From the NCBI RefSeq assembly GCF_013315695.1, contig NZ_CP054353.1: a DNA stretch of 64,000 nt; one strand, written 5' to 3'. A program made the translations under genes and the position numbers. Each line of letters begins with the position of its first letter. Position 1 is the stretch's first letter. Below, piece after piece: positions 1 to 32,145 of this stretch. The notes below the pieces were generated by a model, which did no database searches, was not told the DNA's origin, and worked only from the letters and a program-made list of their open reading frames with translations. The DNA comes from Escherichia coli (lineage in GTDB: Bacteria; Pseudomonadota; Gammaproteobacteria; Enterobacterales; Enterobacteriaceae).

Positions 1-609
1 GCTGCGTTCGTGCGCTTCGTCAATAATGATGGTGTCGTACTGCATCAGCAGGCGGTCTTGCTGGATCTCTGCCAGCAGGATACCGTCGGTCATCAGCTTG
101 ACCATCGTGTTATCACTTACGTGATCGCTGAAACGCACTTTGTAACCGATGCAACCGCCCGGCTCCGTTTTCAGCTCTTCCGCAATACGGTTAGCCACCG
201 TTCGTGCCGCCAGGCGACGCGGTTGGGTATGACCGATCAGCCCTTTAATACCGCGCCCCAGCTCCATACAGATTTTCGGTAGCTGAGTCGTTTTACCGGA
301 ACCGGTTTCCCCGGCGACGATCACCACCTGGTGATCACGAATCGCGTCGAGAATGTCCTGCTTTTTCTGACTAACCGGCAAATTGTCGGGATAAGTGATT
401 TCCGGTCGTGCCGCTTCACGCAGCAGTACTTTCCCTGCCGCCTGGTCAATCTCTTTCGCCATCTCCTGGAAAATGGCCTGTTGTGCATCAGGATTTTTAA
501 CCTTCTTAACACCGTGCAGACGGCAAGAAAAACGCTGTCTGTCGCGCAGCATCAGCGAATCCAGCCGCTGCTGCAAGGCCGTAAAGGTCAATTTTTGTTG
601 TTCTGTCAT
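1..609 (-). CDS. hrpA: ATP-dependent RNA helicase HrpA, N-terminal part (gene continues beyond window start)
   Basis: Reverse-strand translation from ATG at 607-609 reads MTEQQKLTFTALQQRLDSLMLRDRQRF... with the GETGSGKT Walker A motif; divergent from azoR as in K-12. Not in ORF track because it runs off the window edge. Confidence 0.9.
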   Translation of the reverse strand, partial: MTEQQKLTFTALQQRLDSLMLRDRQRFSCRLHGVKKVKNPDAQQAIFQEMAKEIDQAAGKVLLREAARPEITYPDNLPVSQKKQDILDAIRDHQVVIVAGETGSGKTTQLPKICMELGRGIKGLIGHTQPRRLAARTVANRIAEELKTEPGGCIGYKVRFSDHVSDNTMVKLMTDGILLAEIQQDRLLMQYDTIIIDEAHERS

Positions 610-800
610 AACGTTAGTGGGCAGTAGGCTGCCTGATTAATTTTCTTTTAAATGATAGATATAGAGTACCACATCGCGGCTTTCTATGCGTTGTTCAATA
701 AATTCGAACATAGGCTTCGATTTATTGCGCTATCTCTGTGGCAGGATTGTGAATAAAGTGTCAGCAAGCAACGGGGCATCGCCCATTCAAACATCTATAA

Positions 801-1415
<615 letters not shown>

Positions 1416-1432
1416 CCGGACACGATCTTGAT

Positions 1433-1456
1433 GTGGACTGTAGATATTCAGTCCAC
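1433..1456. terminator. Hairpin between convergent azoR and ynbD (possible bidirectional terminator)
   Basis: Inverted repeat gtggactg / agtccac with 9-nt loop immediately after the azoR stop; no strong T-tract. Confidence 0.3.
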
Positions 1457-1468
1457 ATCTCAATCCGC

Positions 1469-4532
<3,064 letters not shown>

Positions 4533-4547
4533 TTTCTCTATTTTCCT

Positions 4548-5444
4548 TCAGTAACAGCAGTAGCGAATAAAATAAAAAAATACCGGAGCGGTGAAAATTA
4601 ATGAGTCAATCCTGTCAAGGAGTCCGCCATGTCCTGGTAATAGTTTTCCACTATCTTTAACACCAATATCTCGTTTGATGGCTGACATCACTACATCGCC
4701 GCAAAAACCACTTACCCCAATCAGTAACCCCGCCAATAATGCCTGCCAGGCGTTTAAGGGTGTCAATAACGGTCCAATGATCATCGACGCTATCATGGTG
4801 GTGATTACGCCGCCCATCAGACCTTCCAGTGTTTTTCCCGGGCTGACTTTGGGGACCACTTTTCTTCTGCCGCAGGATTTTCCCCATAAATACTGTGCAA
4901 TATCGTTTGACTCGGTTAATGCCAAAAGAAATAACACCAGTAACGCCCCGCCCTGGATATTTGTGGTTGGCAACATTAATAACCAGGCGGCATGACTCAA
5001 GGCGAAAACGGTCATTATCCAGCCACAAAAAATGGCACTCACGGTATGCAGAAAACCAGAGGGGTCACCCACTAAAACTCGCCAGGTGGCTAATATCAGA
5101 AACCCAGCCAAAGGTATAAATAACAGAAACAGCTCAAAGCAATTAAAACCGATAAGCAAATAGTTAAGAGGAATACCCCAATATAACCAACGCGGAAAAT
5201 GTACGGATATAAGCGTACAATATTCTTTCAATGCCAGAAAACTTATCAGCGCAAAAAACGTCAACGTCATCCAGCGTGGACCTGAAATCACCATTGAAAA
5301 ACAAATGACGATGCCCCACCAGGTACGAATACGTAATGTAACCTCACCCCCTTTTCCCTCCGGTAACCGCCATATCAGAAAACGGTTTATCAGCGTTGCT
5401 AAAATTAACAACGCGAAAAGTGTTGCCAGAGATTTTTCCAGCAT
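4548..5444 (-). CDS. ynbB: CDP-diglyceride synthetase (CdsA)-like membrane protein
   Basis: 298-aa polytopic membrane ORF; ATG at 5442-5444 overlaps the ynbA stop by 1 nt (operon coupling). Confidence 0.85.
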   Translation of the reverse strand: MLEKSLATLFALLILATLINRFLIWRLPEGKGGEVTLRIRTWWGIVICFSMVISGPRWMTLTFFALISFLALKEYCTLISVHFPRWLYWGIPLNYLLIGFNCFELFLLFIPLAGFLILATWRVLVGDPSGFLHTVSAIFCGWIMTVFALSHAAWLLMLPTTNIQGGALLVLFLLALTESNDIAQYLWGKSCGRRKVVPKVSPGKTLEGLMGGVITTMIASMIIGPLLTPLNAWQALLAGLLIGVSGFCGDVVMSAIKRDIGVKDSGKLLPGHGGLLDRIDSLIFTAPVFFYFIRYCCY

Positions 5445-6049
5445 TATCTTTCAGCACTCATCAGGAGCACACTTCGACAACGATTAATCGCAGTCCAGAG
5501 AAGCAAAATTGAAGCAATGCTCCATAAAAGATTATTCCATTGCATCCACTGTGGATAAATGGCAACAGCCAGCCCCCACAACCCAAATATTAACGCACGA
5601 TCGCTTTTGCCGAATGGACCGGCATAACTGCGAATACCGTTAATCGTCTGCGCGAGTAAACCGCAAAACTCAGTTAATATGGTGCAAAATAACATGAGTA
5701 TTACGAGTGATGCGTTACTTTCCGGTAAAAATAAAAACGGTAAATAAAGCGCAATATCGGAAATAACATCGCCAGTTTCATTCAAAATCGCCCCAAGACG
5801 TGTTTGCTGATTGCACTCACGCGCCATCATGCCATCCAGCGCATTGAGCGCCATACGGATAAAAAGCACGATAGGCAATAGCAAAAAGAGGATGGGTTGT
5901 GCCACCAACATCAACAGCAATCCGGTAAGAAGAGAAAGCGCCAGTGCAGCAAGAGTGATGTGATTCGCTGTAACATGGTGCTTATTAAGCCAAAACATCG
6001 TCGGCCTTAACAGCGACTGAAAGAGCGGTTTTATCTGGTAGAGCGTCAT
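5444..6049 (-). CDS. ynbA: CDP-alcohol phosphatidyltransferase-family membrane protein
   Basis: ORF track 5444..6055; ATG at 6047-6049 gives 201 aa (MTLYQIKPL...); CDP-alcohol phosphatidyltransferase-like motif region DGMMARE. Confidence 0.8.
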   Translation of the reverse strand: MTLYQIKPLFQSLLRPTMFWLNKHHVTANHITLAALALSLLTGLLLMLVAQPILFLLLPIVLFIRMALNALDGMMARECNQQTRLGAILNETGDVISDIALYLPFLFLPESNASLVILMLFCTILTEFCGLLAQTINGIRSYAGPFGKSDRALIFGLWGLAVAIYPQWMQWNNLLWSIASILLLWTAINRCRSVLLMSAER

Positions 6050-6219
6050 TATCAATCCTTGATAATTCGGTTTGCGCTATGGTGCATCAATTCCCCTGAC
6101 GGAGATATCGCAACACGCCGCTTCATTAAAAATTCAGAATATATCAAGGTATTGGGGACTCACCGTCAGGAATGATTATCCCCAATAAATCAAGTGGTTA
6201 AAAATTATTACGCTGTTAT

Positions 6220-6597
6220 TCAATACAACTCATTAAGTTTTCTCATCGCTTGTTCCCGTATTGCGCGCGTCTTACCGTTAAGCGCCAGCTGGCGGACTAA
6301 ATCCAGTTCAGGGTTAACAAGCTCTAACGCCAGCAAAGGATCACGTTTCAGCCTCGCCTTCAATACATCAACTGGGAAACGGGGATCATTCATCGCCATA
6401 ATCCACCACTCGGGATCAATTTCTGCCGCTAGTGCCGCAGACGGTGTATGGCGATTGTTAAGTGCGCCGAACTTGAAAAATGTAAGATTGCTTTTCGCCA
6501 GCGTACTCCACCATATACGATCCGGTTGTTTTGCCAGTTTATCCAGTTGCGCTAATGCATCGGAGTCAAGTGCATAATAAACACGTAACGCTTCGTT
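6220..6597 (-). pseudogene. ydbD: 3-prime remnant of ydbD, truncated by IS1
   Basis: Reverse-strand frame is open from the IS1 boundary (6597) to TGA at 6220-6222 (...TNEALRVYYALDSDALAQLDKLAKQPDRIWW...KLNELY*), with no start codon; position matches the gene preceding ynbA in K-12. Confidence 0.6.
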
Positions 6598-6652
6598 GGT
6601 GATGCTGCCAACTTACTGATTTAGTGTATGATGGTGTTTTTGAGGTGCTCCA

Positions 6653-6928
6653 GTGGCTTCTGTTTCTATCAGCTGTCCCTCCTGTTCAGCTACTGACGGG
6701 GTGGTGCGTAACGGCAAAAGCACCGCCGGACATCAGCGCTATCTCTGCTCTCACTGCCGTAAAACATGGCAACTGCAGTTCACTTACACCGCTTCTCAAC
6801 CCGGTACGCACCAGAAAATCATTGATATGGCCATGAATGGCGTTGGATGCCGGGCAACAGCCCGCATTATGGGCGTTGGCCTCAACACGATTTTACGTCA
6901 CTTAAAAAACTCAGGCCGCAGTCGGTAA
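6653..6928 (+). CDS. insA: IS1 InsA (transposition inhibitor / N-terminal part of InsAB transposase)
   Basis: 91-aa [42 protein letters not shown]..., zinc-finger CxxC...CxxC; A6C slippery site ttaaaaaac near its 3-prime end. Confidence 0.95.
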
Positions 6929-7350
6929 CCTCGCGCATACAGCCGGGCAGTGACGTCATCGTCTGCGCGGAAATGGACGAACAGTGGGGCTATGTCGGGG
7001 CTAAATCGCGCCAGCGCTGGCTGTTTTACGCGTATGACAGGCTCCGGAAGACGGTTGTTGCGCACGTATTCGGTGAACGCACTATGGCGACGCTGGGGCG
7101 TCTTATGAGCCTGCTGTCACCCTTTGACGTGGTGATATGGATGACGGATGGCTGGCCGCTGTATGAATCCCGCCTGAAGGGAAAGCTGCACGTAATCAGC
7201 AAGCGATATACGCAGCGAATTGAGCGGCATAACCTGAATCTGAGGCAGCACCTGGCACGGCTGGGACGGAAGTCGCTGTCGTTCTCAAAATCGGTGGAGC
7301 TGCATGACAAAGTCATCGGGCATTATCTGAACATAAAACACTATCAATAA
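6847..7350 (+). CDS. insB: IS1 InsB frame (expressed as InsAB by -1 frameshift)
   Basis: 167-aa ORF in -1 frame relative to insA, ending ...HYLNIKHYQ. Confidence 0.9.
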
Positions 7351-7505
7351 GTTGGAGTCATTACCACTTGAACCGATAATAAACGCAGAAATTCTATTTT
7401 GTAGCTCATTGTTGCCTCCTGTGTGAATTGTTCGAATCTACCAGGCTGCGATGAAAGAAGTCGTGTAGTAGAGAGCTATACCCGCAACAAGCGGGGCAGA
7501 CGTTC

Positions 7506-7829
7506 TTATTTCTGTAACCATTTTCCGTTAATGCCCTGCACATATTCTCCTGATTTAGCGCGAGCTACGAGCTTTTGCCCGGCAAGTTTCGCGATATCAT
7601 CTACCGACACATTATTTTGCTTTGCCAGTTGTTGATAGCTCGCTTTACGTTCGGCATTAATGTCGGTTACTAATTTCTCTGTTTCAGCATCTGTTTTCAG
7701 CGCAACCAGATAACCATAAAATGTTTCCCCTACCCGCCCCTGAGTTCTGGCTTCATCCAGAGTCAATGCCATTACATTGCTGCTTACCAAGCCAACAAGA
7801 AATGCACAAAGAAGTAATGTTCTTTTCAT
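7506..7829 (-). CDS. ydbL: Periplasmic protein YdbL (DUF1318)
   Basis: ORF track 7506..7910; start set at MKRTLLLCAFLVG... signal peptide (107 aa), last gene of ydbH-ynbE-ydbL. Confidence 0.85.
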   Translation of the reverse strand: MKRTLLLCAFLVGLVSSNVMALTLDEARTQGRVGETFYGYLVALKTDAETEKLVTDINAERKASYQQLAKQNNVSVDDIAKLAGQKLVARAKSGEYVQGINGKWLQK

Positions 7830-7836
7830 CATCACC

Positions 7837-8022
7837 TCAAAAAAGATCGCTACGGGTCTCAAGCAGCTCTTCGACATCTTTGTCTGCCTTGATGATGATC
7901 TCATGCTCAATTTTAACGTTCATATTGATAGTGATCGGTTCCTTAGGTGCAGCGACTTCAATGCGAGGCGTACAGCCAACCAGCATAAAAGATGACGTCA
8001 ACGCAGCCAGTAAAATTTTCAT
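7837..8022 (-). CDS. ynbE: Lipoprotein YnbE
   Basis: 61-aa ORF MKILLAALTSSFMLVGC... with lipobox LVGC; overlaps the ydbH stop by 4 nt. Confidence 0.85.
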   Translation of the reverse strand: MKILLAALTSSFMLVGCTPRIEVAAPKEPITINMNVKIEHEIIIKADKDVEELLETRSDLF

Positions 8023-10658
8023 TGTTTTTCCTCACACTCTTTTCCTTGCGGACAGTCATTTCCCGGCAGACGCGCGTTCTGCTCCAGCCATGCCTGGAGA
8101 TTATCGCCAAAGCGTAAACTGCGCCACAGCGTAAAAATATTCTCTTCATGATGGTAATTAAGATTTACCGTACCGCTTTTACCATCAACGCGACTGGTAC
8201 CTGTAATGTTGGCCTGCATGGTTAATAAACCGAGATTATCTAAATTAATTTTTGTCGATGAACGGCTAATTTCCATATAGCGCAACCAGTTAATTGCTGA
8301 ACCCGCGGTCATATTGTCTTTCACCACCGCATCTGCGGTGTCTTTATCCAGCCGCAAGGTCATCGGCCCGCTATTTGCCAGCCAGCCGTCTTTCACTATC
8401 CATTTTTCGTTGTTTAGCCATAACGGCAATGCACCACTAAATGCCCCGGACATGGCGAATTGTTTCGGATTGACGGCGCTAACCAGTTCGCTGGAGGAAA
8501 GATTATTCAGCCGCAACAGCGCCGGGTCATGTTGCGGCATACGTAATTGTTTCATCAGCACGTTACCGCCTAACACATCAACGCTAACATCAGTCAACAG
8601 CAATGGTTCTTCTTCAGTCCACGGATAACGACCTTGCAAATCAGCCGTAATATTTTTCGCTGTCACCAGATTAATCACTTCGGCAATTCGCAACGTAACG
8701 GGGCCGCGAGTCCCCAGATGCCAGGCTCCATCGGCAAAACGGAAAGGCAGGACAAAATCGACACCGTTAACCTGATTATCTGGCATCCAGGCACTACCGC
8801 CTTTCAACACACCGTGCCCTCCCGCGCGGAATCCTTGTTCAGGCGCAGCAGAAAATGCGACCTGGGCATATAGTTCGCCATCGCGTAAGTTCATCTTCCA
8901 GTCGGGTGGCACCAGCGGCTGGAATACGGTCAGTGATTGTTTAGGCCACCAGGCGTTACCGCGCAGACGAATACCGTCCCAGCGACCATTTACCCGAACC
9001 GGGCCAATCTCACCAGCATGTAAATCGCCTTTAAAGAGGAAATACGTCGGATCGCGTCCATCGACGCTAAATTTTAAGGTTGATGGCGGTAACACACTGC
9101 CGCCAGTGAACAGCGTTTGCCCGGCGTCCAGTGACAGCGCGCCGCTAAAGGAGGGATGCTGTGCGTCACGTACCCAGACGACGGGCTTGTCGAGAATTAG
9201 TCGCGGCTTTTCAACCGTCATCGTACCGTATTGTAACTGGTCGAAACCGGTGGAGAGATCGGTCAGCGTAATCGTGCTGTCATGCCACTCACCCTTTCCT
9301 GCGACATCCCAGGTGGCATTCATCGGTGTAAAACTGCCTTTTCCCCAGTAGCGCCACTGCCAGCGGCCAGCGTCAGGGAGAAAATCATTCGCCAGTCCAT
9401 CCATATGCAGCACGAAATCGCCCAGTTCATTTTCATGCGCCTGCAAAATGGCCTGCAAACGTCCGTCAACACCACGTTGGGTGACTTTTACACCCGCTAA
9501 AGGCCAGCGGATTTCATCGATGTCCAGCGAATCAATGACTCTTCCCTTTGAACGAAGTAACGCGCCTGGCTCAAAGGTCAACGTTGGGTCAGACAGACTT
9601 CCACTTAGCTGCGCAGGTAAACGGGCATATAAAATGAGGTCCGCCTGTTTCGCTTCACCGGTCAGTTGCATAGGCAGCTGGCTGTTATCCATGCTTAATT
9701 TTCCTGGGCCAAAATTAAGCACCGCGTTGCCTTTACCCGCTTGCCCCTGGGTCAGCACACTCAGTCGTCCGCTGACCAGAGCGTTCTCGAGCCCTGCCTG
9801 CCAGTTGTCGACTTTGACACCCAGTCGGCCACTCAAAGGAAAACCTGCATACGGCCAGCTCCAGCGACCATCGCTTACGGTCAATTGTTGACGAGTAATT
9901 TGCCACGGCAAATCGAGCAACGGATCGCCGTTATCCCGTGCCAGCACGATCAATTGCCCGCTATTTTCCTGCCAGTCCAGCTCTGCATCCACCAGTGACG
10001 GTTCCTGCGGCAAGTTTAACGTCGCAGTAGCATGCCCACTTACCGGAAGTCCATCCGGCACGAGCGGCATAGTAAATTCCCCCTCCAGTTTAACCGGCGG
10101 CTGATTTTCAAACGCGACGACATCCAGTTCGCTGACTGTAAGTTGTTGCCCTTTCAGCTGGCCTTGAAATTTAACTTTTTCGCCCTGATAACGCAGTTGC
10201 TGGATATCGGAGGTTAATGCGAGAGAGAGTTTTCCCTGCCATTCCTGCCAGGGAGAAAAAATCAGTTTATCGATATTGATCCAAGTGTTAGGCAACATGG
10301 CCTGCCACTGCGCGAGGTTTTTTGGAGCGGCTGGCGATTGCTCCGTCTGCGGCAATTTCGCCAGACAAGTAGAATCAAGTTCTACCGTGCCGACGTTCAA
10401 TAACCAGCGGCTGGGATGTGAAAGGCTGGCGTTGGTGATATGCGCAAGCTGACAATCTCCCACCAGATAACGGAGATCGGGAATGATTAAACCTTTACGC
10501 GTAATGCGTGGGCTTTCATCTAATGCAATACGTGTCCCGAGCGGTAGCCAGATGCCCGCCAGCGTGGGAACCCACAGCCCGAGCGTCATCAGCAGCGTCA
10601 ACGGCACAAGAATAATCAGTAATAACAGCGCGAGAACGGCTTTATATTTACCCAGCAT
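8019..10658 (-). CDS. ydbH: AsmA/TamB-like large envelope protein YdbH
   Basis: 879-aa ORF with N-terminal TM anchor (MLGKYKAVLALLLLIILVPL...); divergent from ldhA as in K-12. Confidence 0.9.
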   Translation of the reverse strand: MLGKYKAVLALLLLIILVPLTLLMTLGLWVPTLAGIWLPLGTRIALDESPRITRKGLIIPDLRYLVGDCQLAHITNASLSHPSRWLLNVGTVELDSTCLAKLPQTEQSPAAPKNLAQWQAMLPNTWINIDKLIFSPWQEWQGKLSLALTSDIQQLRYQGEKVKFQGQLKGQQLTVSELDVVAFENQPPVKLEGEFTMPLVPDGLPVSGHATATLNLPQEPSLVDAELDWQENSGQLIVLARDNGDPLLDLPWQITRQQLTVSDGRWSWPYAGFPLSGRLGVKVDNWQAGLENALVSGRLSVLTQGQAGKGNAVLNFGPGKLSMDNSQLPMQLTGEAKQADLILYARLPAQLSGSLSDPTLTFEPGALLRSKGRVIDSLDIDEIRWPLAGVKVTQRGVDGRLQAILQAHENELGDFVLHMDGLANDFLPDAGRWQWRYWGKGSFTPMNATWDVAGKGEWHDSTITLTDLSTGFDQLQYGTMTVEKPRLILDKPVVWVRDAQHPSFSGALSLDAGQTLFTGGSVLPPSTLKFSVDGRDPTYFLFKGDLHAGEIGPVRVNGRWDGIRLRGNAWWPKQSLTVFQPLVPPDWKMNLRDGELYAQVAFSAAPEQGFRAGGHGVLKGGSAWMPDNQVNGVDFVLPFRFADGAWHLGTRGPVTLRIAEVINLVTAKNITADLQGRYPWTEEEPLLLTDVSVDVLGGNVLMKQLRMPQHDPALLRLNNLSSSELVSAVNPKQFAMSGAFSGALPLWLNNEKWIVKDGWLANSGPMTLRLDKDTADAVVKDNMTAGSAINWLRYMEISRSSTKINLDNLGLLTMQANITGTSRVDGKSGTVNLNYHHEENIFTLWRSLRFGDNLQAWLEQNARLPGNDCPQGKECEEKQ

Positions 10659-10865
10659 GGGTAGTTAATATCCTGATTTAGCGAAAAATTAAGCATTCAA
10701 TACGGGTATTGTGGCATGTTTAACCGTTCAGTTGAAGGTTGCGCCTACACTAAGCATAGTTGTTGATGAATTTTTCAATATCGCCATAGCTTTCAATTAT
10801 ATTTGAAATTTTGTAAGATATTTTTAGTAGCTTAAATGTGATTCAACATCACTGGAGAAAGTCTT

Positions 10866-11855
10866 ATGAAACTCGCCGTTTATAGCACAAAACAGTACGA
10901 CAAGAAGTACCTGCAACAGGTGAACGAGTCCTTTGGCTTTGAGCTGGAATTTTTTGACTTTCTGCTGACGGAAAAAACCGCTAAAACTGCCAATGGCTGC
11001 GAAGCGGTATGTATTTTCGTAAACGATGACGGCAGCCGCCCGGTGCTGGAAGAGCTGAAAAAGCACGGCGTTAAATATATCGCCCTGCGCTGTGCCGGTT
11101 TCAATAACGTCGACCTTGACGCGGCAAAAGAACTGGGGCTGAAAGTAGTCCGTGTTCCAGCCTATGATCCAGAAGCCGTTGCTGAACACGCCATCGGTAT
11201 GATGATGACGCTGAACCGCCGTATTCACCGCGCGTATCAGCGTACCCGTGACGCCAACTTCTCTCTGGAAGGTCTGACCGGCTTTACTATGTATGGCAAA
11301 ACGGCAGGCGTTATCGGTACCGGTAAAATCGGTGTGGCGATGCTGCGCATTCTGAAAGGTTTTGGTATGCGTCTGCTGGCGTTCGATCCGTATCCAAGTG
11401 CGGCGGCGCTGGAACTCGGTGTAGAGTATGTCGATCTGCCAACCCTGTTCTCTGAATCAGACGTTATCTCTCTGCACTGCCCGCTGACACCGGAAAACTA
11501 CCACCTGTTGAACGAAGCCGCCTTCGATCAGATGAAAAATGGCGTGATGATCGTCAATACCAGTCGCGGTGCATTGATTGATTCTCAGGCAGCAATTGAA
11601 GCGCTGAAAAATCAGAAAATTGGTTCGTTGGGTATGGACGTGTATGAAAACGAACGCGATCTGTTCTTTGAAGATAAATCCAACGACGTAATCCAGGATG
11701 ACGTATTCCGTCGTCTGTCTGCCTGCCACAACGTGCTGTTTACCGGGCACCAGGCATTCCTGACAGCAGAAGCTCTGACCAGTATTTCTCAGACTACGCT
11801 GCAAAACTTAAGCAATCTGGAAAAAGGCGAAACCTGCCCGAACGAACTGGTTTAA
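10866..11855 (+). CDS. ldhA: Fermentative D-lactate dehydrogenase (NAD-dependent)
   Basis: 329-aa ORF MKLAVYSTKQYDKKYLQQVNESFGFELEFF... with GxGxxG NAD-binding motif (GVIGTGKIG). Confidence 0.97.
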   Translation: MKLAVYSTKQYDKKYLQQVNESFGFELEFFDFLLTEKTAKTANGCEAVCIFVNDDGSRPVLEELKKHGVKYIALRCAGFNNVDLDAAKELGLKVVRVPAYDPEAVAEHAIGMMMTLNRRIHRAYQRTRDANFSLEGLTGFTMYGKTAGVIGTGKIGVAMLRILKGFGMRLLAFDPYPSAAALELGVEYVDLPTLFSESDVISLHCPLTPENYHLLNEAAFDQMKNGVMIVNTSRGALIDSQAAIEALKNQKIGSLGMDVYENERDLFFEDKSNDVIQDDVFRRLSACHNVLFTGHQAFLTAEALTSISQTTLQNLSNLEKGETCPNELV

Positions 11856-11863
11856 TCTTGCCG

Positions 11864-11890
11864 CTCCCCTGCATTCCAGGGGAGCTTATT
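11864..11890 (+). terminator. Putative ldhA terminator hairpin
   Basis: Stem ctcccctg / caggggag with 5-nt loop, 8 nt after the ldhA stop, followed by cttattc. Confidence 0.4.
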
Positions 11891-11965
11891 CAGATAATCC
11901 CCAAAGACCTTTCATCCTCTATTCTTAAAATAGCCCTGAGTCAGAAACTGTAATTGAGAACCACA

Positions 11966-12388
11966 ATGAAGAAAGTAGCCGCGTTTGTTGCGCTAAGCCT
12001 GCTGATGGCGGGATGTGTAAGTAATGACAAAATTGCTGTAACCCCAGAACAGCTACAGCATCATCGCTTTGTGCTGGAAAGCGTAAACGGTAAGCCCGTG
12101 ACCAGCGATAAAAATCCGCCAGAAATCAGCTTTGGTGAAAAAATGATGATTTCCGGCAGCATGTGTAACCGCTTTAGCGGTGAAGGCAAACTGTCTAATG
12201 GTGAACTGACAGCCAAAGGACTGGCAATGACCCGTATGATGTGCGCCAACCCACAGCTTAATGAACTCGATAACACCATTAGCGAAATGCTGAAAGAAGG
12301 TGCACAAGTGGATCTGACCGCGAACCAGTTAACGCTGGCGACCGCGAAACAGACATTAACTTATAAGCTGGCGGATTTAATGAATTAA
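11966..12388 (+). CDS. hslJ: Heat-shock lipoprotein HslJ
   Basis: ORF track 11954..12388; ATG at 11966 gives MKKVAAFVALSLLMAGC... (140 aa) with lipobox. Confidence 0.9.
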   Translation: MKKVAAFVALSLLMAGCVSNDKIAVTPEQLQHHRFVLESVNGKPVTSDKNPPEISFGEKMMISGSMCNRFSGEGKLSNGELTAKGLAMTRMMCANPQLNELDNTISEMLKEGAQVDLTANQLTLATAKQTLTYKLADLMN

Positions 12389-12651
12389 TAGCTGCCACAG
12401 CTCCCGGCGGCAAGTGACTGTTCGCTACAGCGTTTGCCGTTGGGTAATGCACACATCCCAATCGCCGTACCATCCAGTTGACGGGCAACAGAAAGCGAAC
12501 CGCCGATCATTGCACAATTTGCTTCTCCACTACTGGACATCGACGCTTTTAAACCTGGCGCTACGTGCGCCGCAGTCGCCTGCTGAACAGGTTCACTATT
12601 ACACGCCGACAATAATAAAGCGGCACACCCTACCCAAAACGCTGCTCGCAT
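12385..12651 (-). CDS. ydbJ: Small periplasmic/lipoprotein YdbJ (DUF333)
   Basis: 88-aa ORF MRAAFWVGCAALLLSACNSEPVQ...; convergent with hslJ, 4-nt overlap. Confidence 0.85.
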   Translation of the reverse strand: MRAAFWVGCAALLLSACNSEPVQQATAAHVAPGLKASMSSSGEANCAMIGGSLSVARQLDGTAIGMCALPNGKRCSEQSLAAGSCGSY

Positions 12652-12923
12652 CTTTTCTTCCTCTGATCTTCAAGCCAAACGACACCGCCATAAATAATAG
12701 GCAGCACAGAGGGCGACGTCGAGAGCTGTCCTGCGCGTTGCCCCGCATTTTTACTTTTTTATGGCTATTTTTTGCCCTCTGTTTGATCAAAACATTCATT
12801 ACGCTGATGTGGGGGACACAAAAGCGAAAATGCAGAAGAAAGCCATTTGCTAAAATTGAAGGATTACTACTGGGCGCGCAGCAATTTCGTGCGCCCCTCA
12901 TTTGCGCAATGTAAGGGTGTCAT

Positions 12924-15900
12924 ATGATTACTATTGACGGTAATGGCGCGGTTGCTTCGGTGGCGTTTCGCACCAGTGAAGTTATCGCCATCTACCCTAT
13001 TACCCCCAGTTCCACGATGGCAGAACAGGCTGATGCCTGGGCCGGAAACGGCTTGAAGAACGTTTGGGGAGACACACCACGCGTGGTTGAAATGCAGTCG
13101 GAAGCGGGTGCTATCGCTACCGTGCATGGCGCTTTGCAGACGGGTGCCCTTTCAACATCGTTTACGTCATCGCAGGGTTTGCTGCTGATGATCCCGACGC
13201 TGTACAAACTGGCAGGCGAACTGACGCCATTTGTCCTGCATGTAGCGGCACGTACCGTTGCCACACATGCACTCTCTATTTTTGGCGATCATTCCGACGT
13301 TATGGCGGTGCGCCAGACGGGTTGCGCGATGTTGTGTGCGGCTAACGTCCAGGAAGTGCAAGACTTTGCTCTCATTTCGCACATCGCAACGCTGAAGAGC
13401 CGCGTGCCATTTATTCATTTCTTTGATGGTTTCCGCACGTCCCACGAAATCAATAAAATTGTCCCGCTGGCCGATGACACTATTCTTGATCTCATGCCGC
13501 AGGCCGAAATTGATGCTCATCGCGCCCGGGCGCTCAACCCGGAACATCCGGTGATCCGCGGTACGTCCGCCAATCCTGACACTTATTTCCAGTCTCGCGA
13601 AGCCACCAACCCCTGGTACAACGCGGTCTATGACCATGTTGAACAGGCGATGAATGATTTCGCTGCCGCGACAGGTCGTCAGTATCAACCGTTTGAGTAT
13701 TATGGGCATCCGCAAGCGGAACGGGTGATTATCCTGATGGGCTCAGCCATTGGCACCTGTGAAGAAGTGGTTGATGAATTGCTAACCCGTGGCGAAAAAG
13801 TCGGCGTGCTGAAAGTTCGCCTGTACCGTCCCTTCTCCGCCAAACACTTGCTACAAGCTCTGCCGGGATCCGTACGCAGCGTGGCGGTACTGGACAGAAC
13901 CAAAGAACCCGGTGCCCAGGCAGAACCGCTCTATCTGGATGTGATGACCGCACTGGCAGAAGCCTTTAATAATGGCGAGCGCGAAACCCTGCCCCGTGTC
14001 ATTGGTGGGCGCTATGGTCTTTCATCCAAAGAATTTGGCCCGGACTGTGTACTGGCGGTATTTGCCGAGCTCAACGCGGCTAAACCGAAAGCGCGCTTTA
14101 CGGTTGGTATTTACGATGATGTGACCAATCTGTCACTGCCGTTGCCGGAAAACACCCTGCCAAACTCGGCGAAACTTGAAGCCTTGTTTTATGGCCTTGG
14201 TAGTGATGGCAGCGTTTCCGCGACCAAAAACAATATCAAGATTATCGGTAATTCCACGCCGTGGTACGCACAGGGCTATTTTGTTTACGACTCCAAAAAG
14301 GCGGGCGGCCTGACGGTTTCTCATCTTCGTGTGAGCGAACAGCCGATTCGTTCCGCTTATCTGATTTCCCAGGCTGATTTTGTTGGCTGCCACCAGTTGC
14401 AGTTTATCGATAAATATCAGATGGCTGAACGTTTAAAACCTGGCGGCATTTTCCTGCTCAACACGCCGTACAGCGCAGATGAAGTATGGTCGCGCTTGCC
14501 GCAGGAAGTTCAGGCCGTGTTAAACCAGAAAAAAGCGCGCTTCTATGTGATTAACGCGGCGAAAATCGCCCGCGAATGTGGCCTGGCGGCCCGTATTAAT
14601 ACCGTCATGCAGATGGCTTTTTTCCATCTTACGCAAATTCTGCCTGGCGATAGCGCCCTCGCAGAATTGCAGGGTGCGATTGCCAAAAGTTACAGTAGCA
14701 AAGGCCAGGATCTGGTGGAACGCAACTGGCAGGCTCTGGCGCTGGCACGTGAATCCGTAGAAGAAGTTCCGCTGCAACCAGTAAATCCGCACAGCGCCAA
14801 TCGACCGCCAGTGGTTTCCGATGCCGCCCCTGATTTCGTGAAAACCGTAACCGCGGCGATGCTCGCCGGGCTTGGTGATGCCCTCCCCGTTTCGGCGCTG
14901 CCGCCAGACGGCACCTGGCCGATGGGCACCACGCGCTGGGAAAAACGCAATATCGCCGAAGAGATCCCCATCTGGAAAGAGGAACTCTGCACCCAATGTA
15001 ACCACTGCGTCGCTGCTTGCCCACACTCAGCTATTCGCGCAAAAGTGGTACCGCCTGAAGCGATGGAAAACGCCCCTGCCAGCCTGCATTCGCTGGATGT
15101 GAAATCGCGTGATATGCGCGGGCAGAAATATGTCTTGCAGGTGGCTCCGGAAGATTGCACGGGTTGTAACCTGTGCGTCGAAGTTTGCCCGGCGAAAGAC
15201 CGTCAGGATCCAGAGATTAAAGCCATCAATATGATGTCGCGGCTGGAACATGTCGAGGAAGAGAAAATCAATTACGACTTCTTCCTGAATTTACCAGAAA
15301 TCGATCGCAGCAAACTGGAACGTATTGATATTCGTACATCGCAACTGATTACACCGCTGTTTGAATATTCAGGTGCTTGCTCTGGTTGTGGCGAGACGCC
15401 GTATATTAAATTGCTGACTCAGCTCTATGGCGATCGGATGTTGATCGCTAACGCTACGGGTTGTTCTTCAATTTATGGTGGTAACCTGCCCTCCACACCA
15501 TATACCACTGATGCCAACGGTCGTGGACCGGCATGGGCGAACTCGCTGTTTGAAGATAACGCCGAATTCGGCCTTGGTTTCCGCCTTACGGTCGATCAAC
15601 ACCGTGTCCGCGTGCTGCGTCTGCTGGATCAATTTGCCGATAAAATCCCGGCGGAATTACTGACTGCGTTGAAATCAGACGCTACGCCAGAGATTCGTCG
15701 TGAACAGGTTGCAGCTTTACGCCAGCAACTCAACGATGTTGCCGAAGCACATGAACTGCTACGTGACGCAGATGCTCTGGTGGAAAAATCAATCTGGCTG
15801 ATTGGTGGTGACGGCTGGGCTTACGATATCGGCTTTGGTGGTCTGGATCATGTATTGAGTTTGACGGAAAACGTCAACATTCTGGTGCTGGATACGCAAT

Positions 15901-16448
15901 GCTATTCCAACACCGGTGGTCAGGCGTCGAAAGCGACACCGCTGGGTGCAGTAACTAAGTTCGGCGAGCACGGCAAACGTAAAGCGCGTAAAGATCTTGG
16001 CGTCAGTATGATGATGTACGGTCATGTTTATGTGGCGCAGATTTCTCTCGGCGCGCAGCTGAACCAGACGGTGAAAGCGATTCAGGAAGCGGAAGCGTAT
16101 CCGGGACCATCGCTGATCATTGCTTATAGCCCGTGTGAAGAGCATGGTTACGATCTGGCTCTCAGCCACGACCAGATGCGCCAACTCACTGCTACCGGCT
16201 TCTGGCCGCTATATCGCTTCGATCCTCGTCGTGCCGATGAAGGCAAACTGCCGCTGGCGCTGGATTCACGCCCGCCGTCAGAAGCACTGGAAGAAACGTT
16301 ACTTCATGAGCAACGTTTCCGTCGTCTGAATTCGCAGCAGCCAGAAGTGGCAGAACAGTTATGGAAAGATGCTGCAGCTGATTTGCAAAAACGCTATGAC
16401 TTCCTGGCACAAATGGCCGGAAAAGCGGAAAAAAGCAACACCGATTAA
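12924..16448 (+). CDS. ydbK: Pyruvate:flavodoxin/ferredoxin oxidoreductase
   Basis: 1174-aa ORF with tandem 4Fe-4S ferredoxin motifs (CTQCNHCVAACP, CTGCNLCVEVCP) and a TPP-binding region; matches K-12 YdbK (Pfo) in length. Confidence 0.95.
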   Translation: MITIDGNGAVASVAFRTSEVIAIYPITPSSTMAEQADAWAGNGLKNVWGDTPRVVEMQSEAGAIATVHGALQTGALSTSFTSSQGLLLMIPTLYKLAGELTPFVLHVAARTVATHALSIFGDHSDVMAVRQTGCAMLCAANVQEVQDFALISHIATLKSRVPFIHFFDGFRTSHEINKIVPLADDTILDLMPQAEIDAHRARALNPEHPVIRGTSANPDTYFQSREATNPWYNAVYDHVEQAMNDFAAATGRQYQPFEYYGHPQAERVIILMGSAIGTCEEVVDELLTRGEKVGVLKVRLYRPFSAKHLLQALPGSVRSVAVLDRTKEPGAQAEPLYLDVMTALAEAFNNGERETLPRVIGGRYGLSSKEFGPDCVLAVFAELNAAKPKARFTVGIYDDVTNLSLPLPENTLPNSAKLEALFYGLGSDGSVSATKNNIKIIGNSTPWYAQGYFVYDSKKAGGLTVSHLRVSEQPIRSAYLISQADFVGCHQLQFIDKYQMAERLKPGGIFLLNTPYSADEVWSRLPQEVQAVLNQKKARFYVINAAKIARECGLAARINTVMQMAFFHLTQILPGDSALAELQGAIAKSYSSKGQDLVERNWQALALARESVEEVPLQPVNPHSANRPPVVSDAAPDFVKTVTAAMLAGLGDALPVSALPPDGTWPMGTTRWEKRNIAEEIPIWKEELCTQCNHCVAACPHSAIRAKVVPPEAMENAPASLHSLDVKSRDMRGQKYVLQVAPEDCTGCNLCVEVCPAKDRQDPEIKAINMMSRLEHVEEEKINYDFFLNLPEIDRSKLERIDIRTSQLITPLFEYSGACSGCGETPYIKLLTQLYGDRMLIANATGCSSIYGGNLPSTPYTTDANGRGPAWANSLFEDNAEFGLGFRLTVDQHRVRVLRLLDQFADKIPAELLTALKSDATPEIRREQVAALRQQLNDVAEAHELLRDADALVEKSIWLIGGDGWAYDIGFGGLDHVLSLTENVNILVLDTQCYSNTGGQASKATPLGAVTKFGEHGKRKARKDLGVSMMMYGHVYVAQISLGAQLNQTVKAIQEAEAYPGPSLIIAYSPCEEHGYDLALSHDQMRQLTATGFWPLYRFDPRRADEGKLPLALDSRPPSEALEETLLHEQRFRRLNSQQPEVAEQLWKDAAADLQKRYDFLAQMAGKAEKSNTD

Positions 16449-16476
16449 ATGCTCTGGATAAGGATCATCCAATTCT

Positions 16477-16581
16477 AAAAAAAAGCCCGGACGACGGTTC
16501 GGGCTTGTCTCATTATTTGTTGGATAAACAGTAACAAGGGTCCAACAGAAAATAATCTTTGTGACAATAAAGGCATATAAC
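16477..16581 (-). ncRNA. micC: MicC sRNA (Hfq-dependent repressor of ompC)
   Basis: Reverse complement reads GTTATATGCCTTTATTGTCAC... and ends in hairpin GCCCGAACCGTCGTCCGGGC plus T8; the 5-prime seed and terminator match MicC; lies between ydbK and ompN as in K-12. Confidence 0.8.
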
Positions 16582-16838
16582 CCGCGAAGAATAACGCATC
16601 ACTATTTAAATGTATAATTTTTATTTTGTATATGTCGCCAACAATATATTCACCAGACTTATTATCATTTCAGAAGAATTATTTGATTAAGGTTTTACTT
16701 AAGGCGTAACAAATAATATTTATCGTCTAACTGAACTTCTCCTTTAGGATGCTTTCACTCCCCGAAATGGGGATAAAAGGCAAGGTGATGCTGCCAACTT
16801 ACTGATTTAGTGTATGATGGTGTTTTTGAGGTGCTCCA

Positions 16839-17114
16839 GTGGCTTCTGTTTCTATCAGCTGTCCCTCCTGTTCAGCTACTGACGGGGTGGTGCGTAACGG
16901 CAAAAGCACCGCCGGACATCAGCGCTATCTCTGCTCTCACTGCCGTAAAACATGGCAACTGCAGTTCACTTACACCGCTTCTCAACCCGGTACGCACCAG
17001 AAAATCATTGATATGGCCATGAATGGCGTTGGATGCCGGGCAACAGCCCGCATTATGGGCGTTGGCCTCAACACGATTTTACGTCACTTAAAAAACTCAG
17101 GCCGCAGTCGGTAA
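16839..17114 (+). CDS. insA: IS1 InsA
   Basis: 91-aa ORF identical to the InsA of copy 1. Confidence 0.95.
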
Positions 17115-17536
17115 CCTCGCGCATACAGCCGGGCAGTGACGTCATCGTCTGCGCGGAAATGGACGAACAGTGGGGCTATGTCGGGGCTAAATCGCGCCAG
17201 CGCTGGCTGTTTTACGCGTATGACAGGCTCCGGAAGACGGTTGTTGCGCACGTATTCGGTGAACGCACTATGGCGACGCTGGGGCGTCTTATGAGCCTGC
17301 TGTCACCCTTTGACGTGGTGATATGGATGACGGATGGCTGGCCGCTGTATGAATCCCGCCTGAAGGGAAAGCTGCACGTAATCAGCAAGCGATATACGCA
17401 GCGAATTGAGCGGCATAACCTGAATCTGAGGCAGCACCTGGCACGGCTGGGACGGAAGTCGCTGTCGTTCTCAAAATCGGTGGAGCTGCATGACAAAGTC
17501 ATCGGGCATTATCTGAACATAAAACACTATCAATAA
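17033..17536 (+). CDS. insB: IS1 InsB frame
   Basis: 167-aa ORF identical to the InsB of copy 1. Confidence 0.9.
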
Positions 17537-17551
17537 GTTGGAGTCATTACC

Positions 17552-18357
17552 TCGATTACGGACGTAATTATGGCGTAATGTACGACATCGAAGGCTGGAC
17601 CGATATGCTGCCTGAATTTGGCGGTGACTCTTATACCAATGCAGACAACTTTATGACTGGTCGTGCCAACGGCGTCGCGACTTATCGTAATACTGATTTC
17701 TTCGGTCTGGTAAATGGTCTGAACTTCGCAGTGCAGTATCAAGGTAACAACGAAGGTGCCAGTAATGGTCAGGAAGGCACCAACAACGGACGTGATGTTC
17801 GCCATGAAAACGGTGACGGCTGGGGTCTTTCCACAACATATGATTTAGGCATGGGCTTTAGCGCTGGTGCGGCATACACCTCATCTGACCGCACCAATGA
17901 CCAGGTTAACCATACTGCGGCAGGTGGTGATAAAGCAGACGCGTGGACTGCTGGGCTAAAATACGATGCTAACAATATTTACCTGGCAACCATGTATTCA
18001 GAAACACGTAACATGACCCCGTTTGGCGACAGCGATTATGCAGTTGCGAACAAAACCCAGAACTTTGAAGTTACTGCACAGTACCAGTTTGATTTTGGTC
18101 TGCGTCCGGCAGTCTCTTTCCTGATGTCTAAAGGCCGTGACCTTCACGCTGCCGGTGGTGCAGACAACCCGGCAGGTGTTGATGATAAAGATCTGGTTAA
18201 ATACGCCGATGTTGGCGCGACTTACTATTTCAACAAAAATATGTCCACCTACGTTGACTATAAAATCAACCTGTTGGATGAAGATGACAGCTTCTACGCT
18301 GCCAACGGCATCTCTACCGATGATATTGTCGCTTTAGGTCTGGTTTATCAGTTCTAA
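17552..18357 (+). pseudogene. ompN: Outer-membrane porin OmpN, 5-prime-truncated by IS1 (about 110 N-terminal codons missing)
   Basis: Frame is open from the first base after IS1 (..[25 protein letters not shown]...LGLVYQF*), which aligns to the middle and C-terminus of OmpC-family porins; no signal peptide or promoter remains. Confidence 0.85.
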
Positions 18358-18365
18358 ATCCTCCT

Positions 18366-18390
18366 GCCCGCTGTTATGGCGGGCTTTTTC
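18366..18390 (+). terminator. Rho-independent terminator after ompN
   Basis: Stem gcccgc / gcgggc with 6-nt loop followed by TTTTT. Confidence 0.6.
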
Positions 18391-18416
18391 TGCTTATTCT
18401 TCCTCCTTTGATCTAA

Positions 18417-18932
<516 letters not shown>

Positions 18933-19107: not shown

Positions 19108-19161
19108 ATGTCGCAAAATCAAGAAATTAGTAAGAAAGAACAATACAACCTGAACAAGTAA
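19108..19161 (+). pseudogene. ttcC: ttcA-like 5-prime fragment marking the prophage attR
   Basis: ATG TCG CAA AAT CAA GAA ATT AGT AAG AAA GAA CAA TAC AAC CTG AAC AAG TAA encodes [17 protein letters not shown], a diverged copy of the TtcA N-terminus ([17 protein letters not shown]) at 33431. Confidence 0.7.
19132..19157. repeat. Prophage attachment core, right copy (26-bp direct repeat)
   Basis: aagaaagaacaatacaacctgaacaa, identical to 33455..33480 inside the ttcA start. Confidence 0.75.
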
Positions 19162-19257
19162 GGGCAAAAATCACAACTCTCTGACTCATAAGTATTTTAC
19201 TTATTTTTCAATGTGTTAAATATCATCAGCGACAACAATAAGCTACGATAACCCACT

Positions 19258-19310
19258 CTTTTTTTGCCCCTTTTTTGCCCCTTTTGCAGCGCTTTGCCCC
19301 ATTTTTGCCA
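19258..19310. repeat. Cluster of four TTTTGCC(CC) direct repeats
   Basis: tttttgcccc ttttttgcccc ttttgcagcgc tttgcccc atttttgcca; between attR and the sitA regulatory region. Confidence 0.4.
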
Positions 19311-19421
19311 TCAACAATTTTCCTCATCAAGTCATTTCAAAGCCTAATAGGTGCCCTACTTTTTTCCTCAGTACCACGTCGCCAGCAGGAAACAACCTAA
19401 TCCCGGTTCGGATCTAAAATT

Positions 19422-19440
19422 GCTAATGATAATCATTTTC
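19422..19440 (+). promoter_or_regulatory. Fur box upstream of sitA
   Basis: gctaatgataatcattttc matches the 19-bp Fur consensus GATAATGATAATCATTATC at 16/19 positions. Confidence 0.6.
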
Positions 19441-19462
19441 ATTTTGTATTGCTTATGCTATA

Positions 19463-19484
19463 AAACATAGCCGTTGCTATGTTT
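19463..19484 (+). promoter_or_regulatory. MntR operator upstream of sitA
   Basis: Perfect palindrome aaacatagc-cgtt-gctatgttt, the MntR-box architecture, 33 bp upstream of the sitA ATG. Confidence 0.7.
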
Positions 19485-19516
19485 GTTCTAATTTTGCTCA
19501 CTATAGGTACTAAATT

Positions 19517-20431
19517 ATGTACTCAATAAAAAAAGTAACCATGCTCTTGGGGTGCCTCGCCCTCACCTGCTCGATCGCATTTCAGGCGAGTGCAACTGAA
19601 AAATTCAAGGTCATTACAACATTTACCATCATCGCAGATATGGCCAAAAACGTGGCTGGAGATGCTGCAGAAGTCTCATCCATAACCAAGCCCGGTGCAG
19701 AAATTCATGAGTATCAGCCTACCCCTGGCGATATTAAACGTGCGCAGGAGGCACAACTGATTCTCGCCAATGGTATGAATCTGGAATTGTGGTTCCAACG
19801 CTTTTACCAGCATCTTAATGGGGTTCCAGAAGTAATTGTCTCTTCGGGTGTGACGCCAGTAGGGATCACTGAAGGCCCCTATGAGGGCAAACCTAACCCC
19901 CATGCCTGGATGTCGCCAGATAATGCTCTGATTTACGTCGATAATATTCGTGATGCGTTGATAAAATACGATCCGGCAAATGCACAAACCTACCAACGTA
20001 ATGCCGATACTTATAAAGCCAAGATTACCCAAACCCTTGCCCCCCTGCGTAAGCAGATTGCTGAACTCCCTGAGAATCAGCGATGGATGGTCACCAGTGA
20101 AGGGGCTTTTTCTTATCTCGCACGCGATTTGGGGCTAAAAGAGCTTTATCTGTGGCCGATTAATGCCGATCAACAAGGCACGCCGCAGCAGGTACGTAAG
20201 GTTGTTGATATGGTGAAGAAAAATCATATCCCGGCAGTCTTTAGCGAGAGTACGATTTCCGATAAACCAGCGCGTCAGGTTGCGCGTGAAACCGGCGCGC
20301 ACTACGGCGGTGTACTCTATGTCGATTCCCTGAGCACAGAAAACGGCCCGGTACCTACGTATATCGACCTTCTGAAGGTTACTACCAGTACGCTGGTACA
20401 GGGAATTAAAGCCGGGAAAAGGGAGAAATAA
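19517..20431 (+). CDS. sitA: Mn/Fe ABC transporter periplasmic substrate-binding protein SitA
   Basis: 304-aa ORF with signal peptide, cluster-9 metal-binding family (SitA/YfeA/MntC-like). Confidence 0.9.
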
Positions 20432-22966: not shown

Positions 22967-23077
22967 CACAACATCCGAGGGCAGCATTGTCCGCTAGTAC
23001 ACTGCAGTCCAGAAAGTCATGGGCGGACGTTGGGAGGAGGCGCTAATCCTTTCATACAAAAAATATGTAAAATCAAT

Positions 23078-23150
23078 AACGGCTGTAAATCATTCAATAC
23101 TCGCACTATCGGAAGTTCACCAGCCAGCCGCAGCACGTTCTTGCATACGA
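23078..23150. repeat. Diverged direct repeat, left copy (3-prime end of a small membrane-protein gene plus downstream sequence)
   Basis: aatcattcaatactcgcactatcg matches 24557..24580 at 22/24; similarity continues through cttgcatacgacgtg. Reverse strand encodes ...LALSIVIGGLVKLKPQTRRMQERAAAGW* with no start codon. Confidence 0.5.
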
Positions 23151-23417
23151 CGTGTCTGCGGTTTCAACTTCACCAGTCCACCAATCACGATGGACAGTGC
23201 CAAGACAGCACTAGCAAAAACAGGAAATTAGCAGTCTCAGCAGAACACCGACCAGACGGTGAAGAAACAAAAAAGGATACGCAAAGGGGCCGCAGTTCCC
23301 GATTGATAAAAAAGCCAGCTTATGCGCTTTTTTTTCATGTATTATTAAGTATTGGTTAGCGTCTTTTTAATCAGAACTTTAAAGACAAGCCATTTGTAAG
23401 AAAACCGACAGATTCGG

Positions 23418-26060: not shown

Positions 26061-26070
26061 GATTCGCAAA

Positions 26071-32144: not shown

Positions 32145-32145
32145 T

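Follow-up and report, generated by a model that had tools for sequence, protein, structure and literature searches.

A ydbH-ynbE-ydbL operon lies intact in its chromosomal position between two IS1 copies in an Escherichia coli strain

The 64-kb window examined in this study (that is, the whole stretch of DNA analysed) contains the genes ydbH, ynbE and ydbL, all on the minus strand, which together span 7506-10658 exactly, bounded by the ydbL stop and the ydbH start (Table 1). Zero frameshifts or internal stops were found when the three open reading frames (ORFs) were checked, and ydbH and ynbE have the same lengths as in K-12. The stop codon of ydbH (TGA) and the start codon of ynbE (ATG) share the motif ATGA, giving a 4-nt overlap at 8019-8022, whereas the ynbE stop (7837-7839) and the ydbL ATG (7829) are separated by a 7-nt gap; the original prediction had described overlapping stop and start codons for the module, and this description fits ydbH/ynbE only. 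A second in-frame ATG is available to ydbL at 7832, which would shorten the gap to 4 nt. The co-orientation of the three genes, their order, the ATGA coupling and the 7-nt gap all match the layout of the operon in K-12 (b1381-b1383).

Table 1. Positions of the operon, its flanking regions and the IS1 copies in the window
Feature	Position	Strand	Description
IS1 copy 1	6598-7365	+	768 bp, insA/insB; convergent with the operon; 140 bp past the ydbL stop
3' flank, ydbL stop to IS1	7366-7505	-	140 bp; runs collinear with both IAI39 and MS 21-1 until the IS1 end is reached
ydbL	7506-7829	-	107 aa (PGAP-style start at 7829); periplasmic DUF1318 chaperone-like protein
ynbE	7837-8022	-	61 aa; intact ORF; outer-membrane lipoprotein, predicted to extend the YdbH groove
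ydbH	8019-10658	-	879 aa; intact ORF; inner-membrane-anchored AsmA-like beta-groove protein
Divergent ldhA-ydbH intergenic region	10659-10865		207 bp; promoter side of the operon
IS1 copy 2	16784-17551	+	direct repeat of copy 1; between micC and ompN
IS1 copy 3	25134-25901	inverted	768 bp; identical to copies 1 and 2

The family assignments that had been proposed from the letters of the sequence were borne out by full-length profile matches, and nothing was found that contradicts the identification of the three genes. Across residues 14-862, YdbH gave a match to PF11739 ('Intermembrane phospholipid transport protein YdbH') that covers 1-892 of the 893 profile positions, with E 9.9e-291 and a score of 968.1 bits (cutoff 26.3), and it also matched the NCBIfam equivalog NF007971 (1398.6 bits; cutoff 824); this family belongs to the AsmA-like clan. 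At the sequence level, YdbH also has an N-terminal transmembrane anchor, its most hydrophobic 19-mer being residues 8-26 (VLALLLLIILVPLTLLMTL; mean Kyte-Doolittle 2.95). YnbE matched PF13617 (E 3e-16; 59.3 bits; cutoff 25.8) and carries the lipobox LVGC at residues 14-17 with the lipoprotein cysteine at Cys17, together with the beta-strand I30-I38; the whole protein is 100% identical to that of K-12, and the 3 nucleotide differences in ynbE are all synonymous. YdbL matched PF07027, the DUF1318 profile (E 9.5e-31; 106.6 bits; cutoff 27), and, over residues 22-107, the solved structure PDB 28oj_A, 'Probable chaperone-like protein YdbL' (E 3.2e-49).

The suggestion that this module is implicated in phospholipid transport to the outer membrane agrees with published work on K-12 (PMC8593681, PMC11126948, bioRxiv 10.64898/2026.03.16.712125). 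The synthetic lethality of tamB, yhdP and ydbH, which had been put forward as a check of the prediction, was reported in K-12 in 2021, where loss of YdbH is lethal in a delta-tamB delta-yhdP background (PMC8593681); the YdbH-YnbE bridge was shown in K-12 in 2024 (PMC11126948), and the YdbL crystal structure and its YnbE interface followed in 2026 (PDB 28oj; bioRxiv 10.64898/2026.03.16.712125). According to this K-12 work, an N-terminal helix anchors YdbH in the inner membrane while its long hydrophobic beta-groove reaches into the periplasm. YdbH by itself falls short of the outer membrane; the beta-strand I30-I38 of the outer-membrane lipoprotein YnbE joins the C-terminal end of the groove, and self-stacking of YnbE completes the bridge from inner to outer membrane. 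Periplasmic YdbL binds the C-terminal helix of YnbE and curbs its runaway multimerisation. Phospholipids are thought to slide along this bridge from one membrane to the other, a role in which YhdP and TamB are redundant with it, although phospholipid transport by the YdbH-YnbE bridge is a proposal for which biochemical demonstration is lacking according to PMC11126948. By analogy with the K-12 literature, we infer that the same bridge may form and transport lipids in the strain studied here. Like YdbH, TamB (with TamA) and YhdP are inner-membrane-anchored AsmA-like beta-groove proteins with a proposed role in moving phospholipids to the outer membrane, and they are jointly essential with YdbH (PMC8593681, PMC11126948). 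However, TamB docks on the beta-barrel TamA, whereas YdbH has a small multimerising lipoprotein as its partner, and YdbH is shorter, at about 180 A compared to a periplasm of about 250 A, such that YnbE is required to span the distance (PMC11126948).

YdbH shares 873 of its 879 residues with the K-12 protein (97.95% nucleotide identity for the gene), and the 6 amino acid differences all fall within residues 97-493 (positions 97, 114, 192, 196, 330 and 493). The codon differences in ydbH comprise 47 synonymous and 6 nonsynonymous changes, a ratio that indicates purifying selection. The changes A97T, T114N and V192E were found in neither K-12 nor IAI39, and V192E is a non-conservative change. 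Residues 190, 192, 194 and 196 (K, V>E, E and A>T) alternate with L191, G193, F195 and M197, a pattern suggesting that positions 192 and 196 may both face the polar side of a strand. A continuous hydrophobic repeating beta-groove fold is expected for this YdbH from its 99.3% identity to the K-12 protein, for which an AlphaFold model is given in PMC11126948; a search for a solved YdbH structure found none. The C-terminal part of YdbH, which binds YnbE, has zero changes beyond residue 493. The possibility of a natural gain-of-function YdbH allele was considered and rejected, as the variant sites miss the K-12 suppressor positions 303, 305, 308 and 456, all of which are wild type here.

Differences in YdbL relative to K-12 consist of K3R, A55T, P93S, V105L and R106Q, together with the absence of F108 (107 versus 108 aa), such that the protein ends in ...WLQK here and in ...WVRKF in K-12. 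All 16 of the 16 YdbL residues tested by mutagenesis were kept (L24, R28, E35, Y40, N58, E60, R61, Y65, L68, N72, I79, K86, L87, R90, W104 and K107; list of functional residues from bioRxiv 10.64898/2026.03.16.712125), including W104 and K107 of the C-terminal region that is predicted in the same work to contact YdbH. No residue known to matter is changed in this copy of the operon. Damage to the YdbL C-terminus by IS1 was ruled out, since IAI39, which has no IS1 at this place, likewise encodes a 107-aa YdbL ending in ...KWLQK; the allele is thus a lineage trait.

The three IS1 copies in the window are identical to one another, with the ends GGTGATGCTGCCAACTTACTGAT... and ...ATCAATAAGTTGGAGTCATTACC and with insA/insB ORFs, and annotation of the element in sister genomes places it in the IS1A family. 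Copies 1 and 2 are 100% identical direct repeats whose starts are 10,186 bp apart, so that the bracketing of the module by IS1 is real. The bracketed block contains ydbL-ynbE-ydbH, ldhA, hslJ, ydbJ, ydbK/nifJ and micC. A 9-bp target-site duplication is absent at all three IS1 copies in the window, which is consistent with adjacent deletions or rearrangements. IS1 copy 1 marks a 9,236-bp deletion and, relative to MS 21-1, stands in place of L004 23501-32736, an interval that carries bigA (a pseudogene), pdxI and the initial 1,923 bp of ydbD; the last 378 bp of ydbD remain. At IS1 copy 2, ompN is intact in sister strains, which show the 9-bp duplication AAAAGGCAA, whereas the window has an extra adjacent deletion of 362 bp that extends into ompN and truncates it at the 5' end. 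The surroundings had been described as eroded, which is accurate at the IS1 borders (ydbD, bigA, pdxI and ompN); however, ldhA, hslJ, ydbJ, ydbK/nifJ and micC inside the block and ynbA-D outside it are all intact. This IS1 activity, which removed 9.2 kb on one side and truncated ompN on the other, is the sole strain-specific content of the region. It is a record of genome reduction by IS1 that is still under way in this clone, and the direct-repeat pair could in turn delete or amplify the block.

Of 5426 complete E. coli genomes, 5409 have the region at a coverage of at least 80%, with a median of 1 and a maximum of 2 places per genome, while the junction between IS1 and ydbL was found in only 2 of the 5426. 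MS 21-1 has a sequence 99.958% identical to the 9,418-bp block (4 mismatches) without either bracketing IS1, which indicates that the IS1 events are recent and at the level of the strain. Since these events are very recent and fell outside the operon, its intactness is the default expectation, and the idea that a near-universal region had been specially preserved in eroded surroundings is not upheld. A Shigella-like origin, suspected from the density of IS1, was also rejected, as positions 1-17551 of the window are 100% identical to the sister strain E. coli MSB1_4I (NZ_LR898874.1); another sister, AF3 (NZ_OZ547117.1), differs from the same stretch by one base. We consider it highly probable (approximately 95%) that the region is the ordinary ydbH-ynbE-ydbL operon on the chromosome of a human-associated strain of E. 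coli, situated in its ancestral, K-12-syntenic position and intact because both recent IS1 events fell outside it. The original prediction is therefore correct in its interpretation but adds nothing new to a system that was already known, and the significance of the locus is slight beyond its correct annotation, as this is a core E. coli operon already dissected genetically and structurally.

On the ldhA side, the flank of the operon is the same as in K-12, and the ldhA-ydbH intergenic region is identical to that of K-12 at 205 of 207 positions with no indel. A sigma-70 consensus scan of the minus strand of this region found no site, with overall counts not above those of shuffled sequences. 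Downstream of ydbL the two differ, as K-12 has feaR-feaB-tynA-paa, whereas the ancestral arrangement in this lineage is bigA-pdxI-ydbD, in whose place IS1 now stands. No convincing intrinsic terminator was found between ydbL and IS1 (fold z-score 0.06); therefore, transcripts may run into IS1, and the convergent orientation of the element could in principle allow antisense transcription of the operon. A search for other RNA elements in 6000-18000 found MicC alone. In addition, an unannotated 16-codon ORF starts within the 140-bp flank and is clipped by IS1.

There are several potential alternatives to the reading of the region as an ordinary operon. The direct IS1 pair might make the 9.4-kb block a Tn9-like unit that can be transposed, lost by IS1-IS1 recombination or tandemly amplified, with a resulting change in YdbH dose. 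Two identical direct copies of IS1 flanking a segment are the architecture of IS1-flanked composite transposons, a feature shared with Tn9-type transposons, and dose can matter, as the defects of delta-tamB delta-yhdP K-12 are suppressed when the ydbH-ynbE-ydbL locus is present in additional copies. However, unlike in Tn9-type transposons, the segment here consists of ancestral chromosomal DNA that has kept its original position, in ancestral synteny relative to K-12, IAI39 and MS 21-1; target-site duplications are missing around the composite as well as around either IS1; and copy 2 is, in sister strains, a simple independent insertion with a duplication of its own. The number of places per genome also argues against such a unit, and the block was found neither at a second location nor on a plasmid. 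Mobilisation of the block on plasmids was rejected, since the five plasmid matches in PLSDB (4.8-4.9-Mb or non-mobilizable 250-385-kb records; 96.7-97.8% identity) are read as mislabelled pieces of chromosome, a conclusion settled by megabase size for three and probable for the other two. A Tn9-like unit is thus very unlikely, and there is equally little chance that IS1-IS1 recombination changes how many copies this lineage carries of the YdbH-YnbE-YdbL bridge and, with it, of ldhA, ydbK and micC. If it did, amplification could adaptively alter outer-membrane lipid homeostasis or bile resistance.

It is also conceivable, though highly improbable, that the ORFs are whole while the module is weakened or silenced, either by V192E, T114N or A97T in YdbH, by the ...WLQK end of YdbL, or by convergent transcription from the IS1 140 bp downstream. 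The non-conservative nature of V192E, the restricted occurrence of the three YdbH changes, the differences beside YdbL W104 and K107 and the lack of a terminator between ydbL and IS1 would fit such a loss of function. However, every tested YdbL residue is kept, the YdbL end shared with IAI39 is an old lineage variant, ydbH shows purifying selection, the YnbE-binding part of YdbH is unchanged and the promoter side is nearly identical to that of K-12; in addition, the same YdbH protein (WP_000900998.1) is common to three independent isolates. Least probable of all is that the module was spared beside the IS1 deletions as indispensable in this strain, for example through damage to yhdP or tamB elsewhere (both genes lie outside the 64-kb window), with deletions that invaded it being lethal. 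The lethality of YdbH loss in delta-tamB delta-yhdP K-12 and the fact that both IS1-adjacent deletions end short of the block are compatible with this, but the deletions run away from the block, so selection need not have limited them. The genes ldhA, hslJ, ydbJ and ydbK, which are non-essential, are just as intact, and the IS1 events are too recent for a signal of decay, given the 4 mismatches in 9.4 kb relative to the IS1-free MS 21-1.

The interval from 7506 to 10658 is filled exactly by three co-oriented ORFs, all of them full length, and the ydbH-ynbE-ydbL operon is intact in this strain as originally predicted. The gene identities were likewise borne out by database matches, and the interpretation is supported. 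YdbH matched PF11739 ("Intermembrane phospholipid transport protein YdbH"; Pfam, E = 9.9e-291, profile positions 1-892 of 893) and the NCBIfam equivalog NF007971 (1398.6 bits; cutoff, 824), YnbE matched PF13617 ("YnbE-like lipoprotein"; Pfam, E = 3e-16), and YdbL matched PF07027/DUF1318 (Pfam, E = 9.5e-31) and, among solved structures, 28oj ("Probable chaperone-like protein YdbL", E = 3.2e-49); for YdbH itself no structure has been solved. YdbH has an N-terminal hydrophobic segment (residues 8-26), while YnbE carries an LVGC lipobox with Cys17. Overlapping stop and start codons had been claimed; this holds for ydbH and ynbE (TGA and ATG overlap as ATGA) but not for ynbE and ydbL, where ggtgatgATG comes directly after the ynbE stop (7837-7839), leaving a gap of 7 nt, or of 4 nt should ydbL start at the in-frame ATG further upstream, at 7832.

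Coordinates of the operon, the IS1 copies and neighbouring features in the window
Feature	Position	Strand	Details
ydbH	8019-10658	-	879 aa (ORF list)
ynbE	7837-8022	-	61 aa (ORF list)
ydbL	stop 7506, K-12/PGAP-equivalent start ATG 7829	-	107 aa
YdbL C-terminal allele	7506-7520	-	
16-codon ORF 3' of ydbL	7361-7408	-	unannotated; MS 21-1 sequence L004, 23458-23508
IS1 copy 1	6598-7365	+	repeat finding
IS1 copy 2	16784-17551	+	repeat finding
IS1 third copy	25134-25901	-	repeat finding
MicC sRNA gene	16469-16584	-	Rfam RF00121, 104.1 bits
IS1 copy 2/ompN	16784-18719		junction 17551/17552
Region between uspF and ttcA	~19158-33437		~14 kb
ycjT/ABC permease fusion	~61524-63278		junction near 63053

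The system is already known, and the copy in the window is unremarkable. In K-12, RefSeq names b1381 "putative intermembrane phospholipid transport protein YdbH" and b1382 as the corresponding lipoprotein YnbE. The synthetic-lethality check proposed with the original prediction is an experiment already found in Ruiz et al. 2021 (PMC8593681), where YhdP depletion bears out the lethality. According to Kumar et al. 2024 (PMC11126948), YdbH (~180 A) is too short to span the periplasm (~250 A); it cross-links in vivo to YnbE, an outer-membrane lipoprotein whose strand I30-I38 lengthens the groove of YdbH through beta-strand augmentation, and YnbE forms multimers, a tendency restrained by YdbL. By those authors' own account, biochemical evidence for lipid transport is still missing. 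De'Ath et al. 2026 (bioRxiv 10.64898/2026.03.16.712125) added a YdbL crystal structure at 2.12 A, an NMR map of its interface with the YnbE C-terminal helix, and a list of residues where substitution abolishes or weakens YdbL function.

At the nucleotide level ydbH shares 97.95% identity with K-12 MG1655; of the codon differences, 47 are synonymous and 6 nonsynonymous (A97T, T114N, V192E, A196T, L330M and I493V). The YnbE protein is unchanged, and YdbL differs by K3R, A55T, P93S, V105L and R106Q and is without the terminal F108. These alleles leave the known functional residues untouched. All 16 tested YdbL residues are kept (L24, R28, E35, Y40, N58, E60, R61, Y65, L68, N72, I79, K86, L87, R90, W104 and K107), YdbH positions 303, 305, 308 and 456 are wild type, and the YnbE-binding C-terminal end of YdbH is unchanged, since no substitutions lie beyond residue 493. 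The sole non-conservative YdbH change, V192E, lies in the context ...KLEGEFTMPL..., where residues 190, 192, 194 and 196 (K, E, E, T) alternate with 191, 193, 195 and 197 (L, G, F, M), and because of this pattern positions 192 and 196 probably lie on a strand's solvent-facing side. It is very improbable that the operon is silently impaired, a reading against which the conservation of every tested residue, the purifying-selection statistics and the occurrence of the allele in three isolates all argue.

The YdbL C-terminus comes in two E. coli alleles: this strain and IAI39 have ...KWLQK* (107 aa), and K-12 has ...KWVRKF* (108 aa). Their differences adjoin W104 and K107, residues predicted to contact YdbH. 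IS1 damage was ruled out as the source of the ...KWLQK C-terminus, as IAI39, which has no IS1 at the locus, shares both length and ending; the allele is thus a lineage trait.

A Shigella origin of the window was rejected in favor of E. coli: positions 1-17551 are 100% identical to E. coli MSB1_4I (rectal swab, Australia). AF3, from a UK blood culture, shows a single-base difference over that span and remains collinear through 64000 (99.985%). The block has the K-12 gene order (ompN-micC-ydbK-ydbJ-hslJ-ldhA-ydbH-ynbE-ydbL) and occupies its ancestral position. MS 21-1, a close relative that has neither of the bracketing IS1 copies, shows 4 mismatches in 9,418 bp and shares the protein accessions of YdbH, YnbE and YdbL. 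On the promoter side of the operon, the 207 bp between ldhA and ydbH match K-12 at 205 positions. Of 5426 complete genomes, 5409 carry the operon region at a coverage of at least 80%, and 2 contain the IS1/ydbL junction. Intactness is thus to be expected by default of a core operon beside very recent IS events, and ldhA, hslJ, ydbJ, ydbK and micC in the block are equally intact. A second small correction to the original observation is that the surroundings are eroded only where IS1 borders the block. That the operon is indispensable in this strain's background is the least credible of the readings considered.

The predicted IS1 bracket is real, with copies 1 and 2 forming direct repeats around 7366-16783. 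This architecture fits a composite transposon or amplifiable unit, yet such a reading is highly unlikely: the block is still in place, no duplication flanks it, IS1 copy 2 in the sister strains AF3 and MSB1_4I is a simple insertion of independent origin, and the sole "plasmid" matches appear to be mislabelled chromosome records. Repeat finding and direct comparison showed three mutually identical (100%) copies of 768 bp each. No target-site duplication was found at any of the three in the window, which implies that each is tied to deletion or rearrangement rather than simple insertion. Copy 1, fitting an IS1-associated deletion in this respect, replaces 9,236 bp of MS 21-1 comprising bigA (frameshifted already), pdxI and the initial 1,923 bp of ydbD. 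Copy 1 sits 140 bp past the stop codon of ydbL, in convergent orientation to the operon. Because those 140 bp yielded no intrinsic terminator, ydbL transcripts could possibly read through into IS1, or antisense transcription could occur. Copy 1 also clips the 16-codon ORF MSYKIEFLRLLSVQVK, whose frame runs on into the IS1 end. This ORF has a well-spaced upstream AGGAGG Shine-Dalgarno sequence. MS 21-1 carries it intact, IAI39 has its start, and K-12 lacks it.

Copy 2 lies directly against the interior of ompN, and the gene is 5'-truncated. Because AF3 and MSB1_4I show a clean insertion 25-34 bp upstream of the ATG, with a 9-bp duplication (AAAAGGCAA) and ompN intact, the window carries an extra 362-bp IS1-adjacent deletion that removed the RBS together with the initial 328 nt of ompN. 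Among the matches listed from 5426 complete E. coli genomes, the IS1/ompN junction was not found as a single contiguous piece; in 15 genomes an IS1 lies a few hundred bp or less from the same segment, a possible sign of an insertion hot spot. The MicC gene, intact, lies 200 bp from copy 2, and its divergent neighbor ompN is without its 5' end.

Elsewhere, the region between uspF and ttcA is absent from MS 21-1 and, by AF3 annotation, contains sitABCD, for iron/manganese uptake, as well as the remnant of a Rac-like prophage (sieB, kilR, racC, recE, recT, ralR, xisR and a frameshifted intR), within which the third IS1 copy lies. In addition, the AF3 annotation has ycjT without its N-terminus, fused to a partial ABC permease, a deletion scar in the ycj sugar-utilisation cluster.
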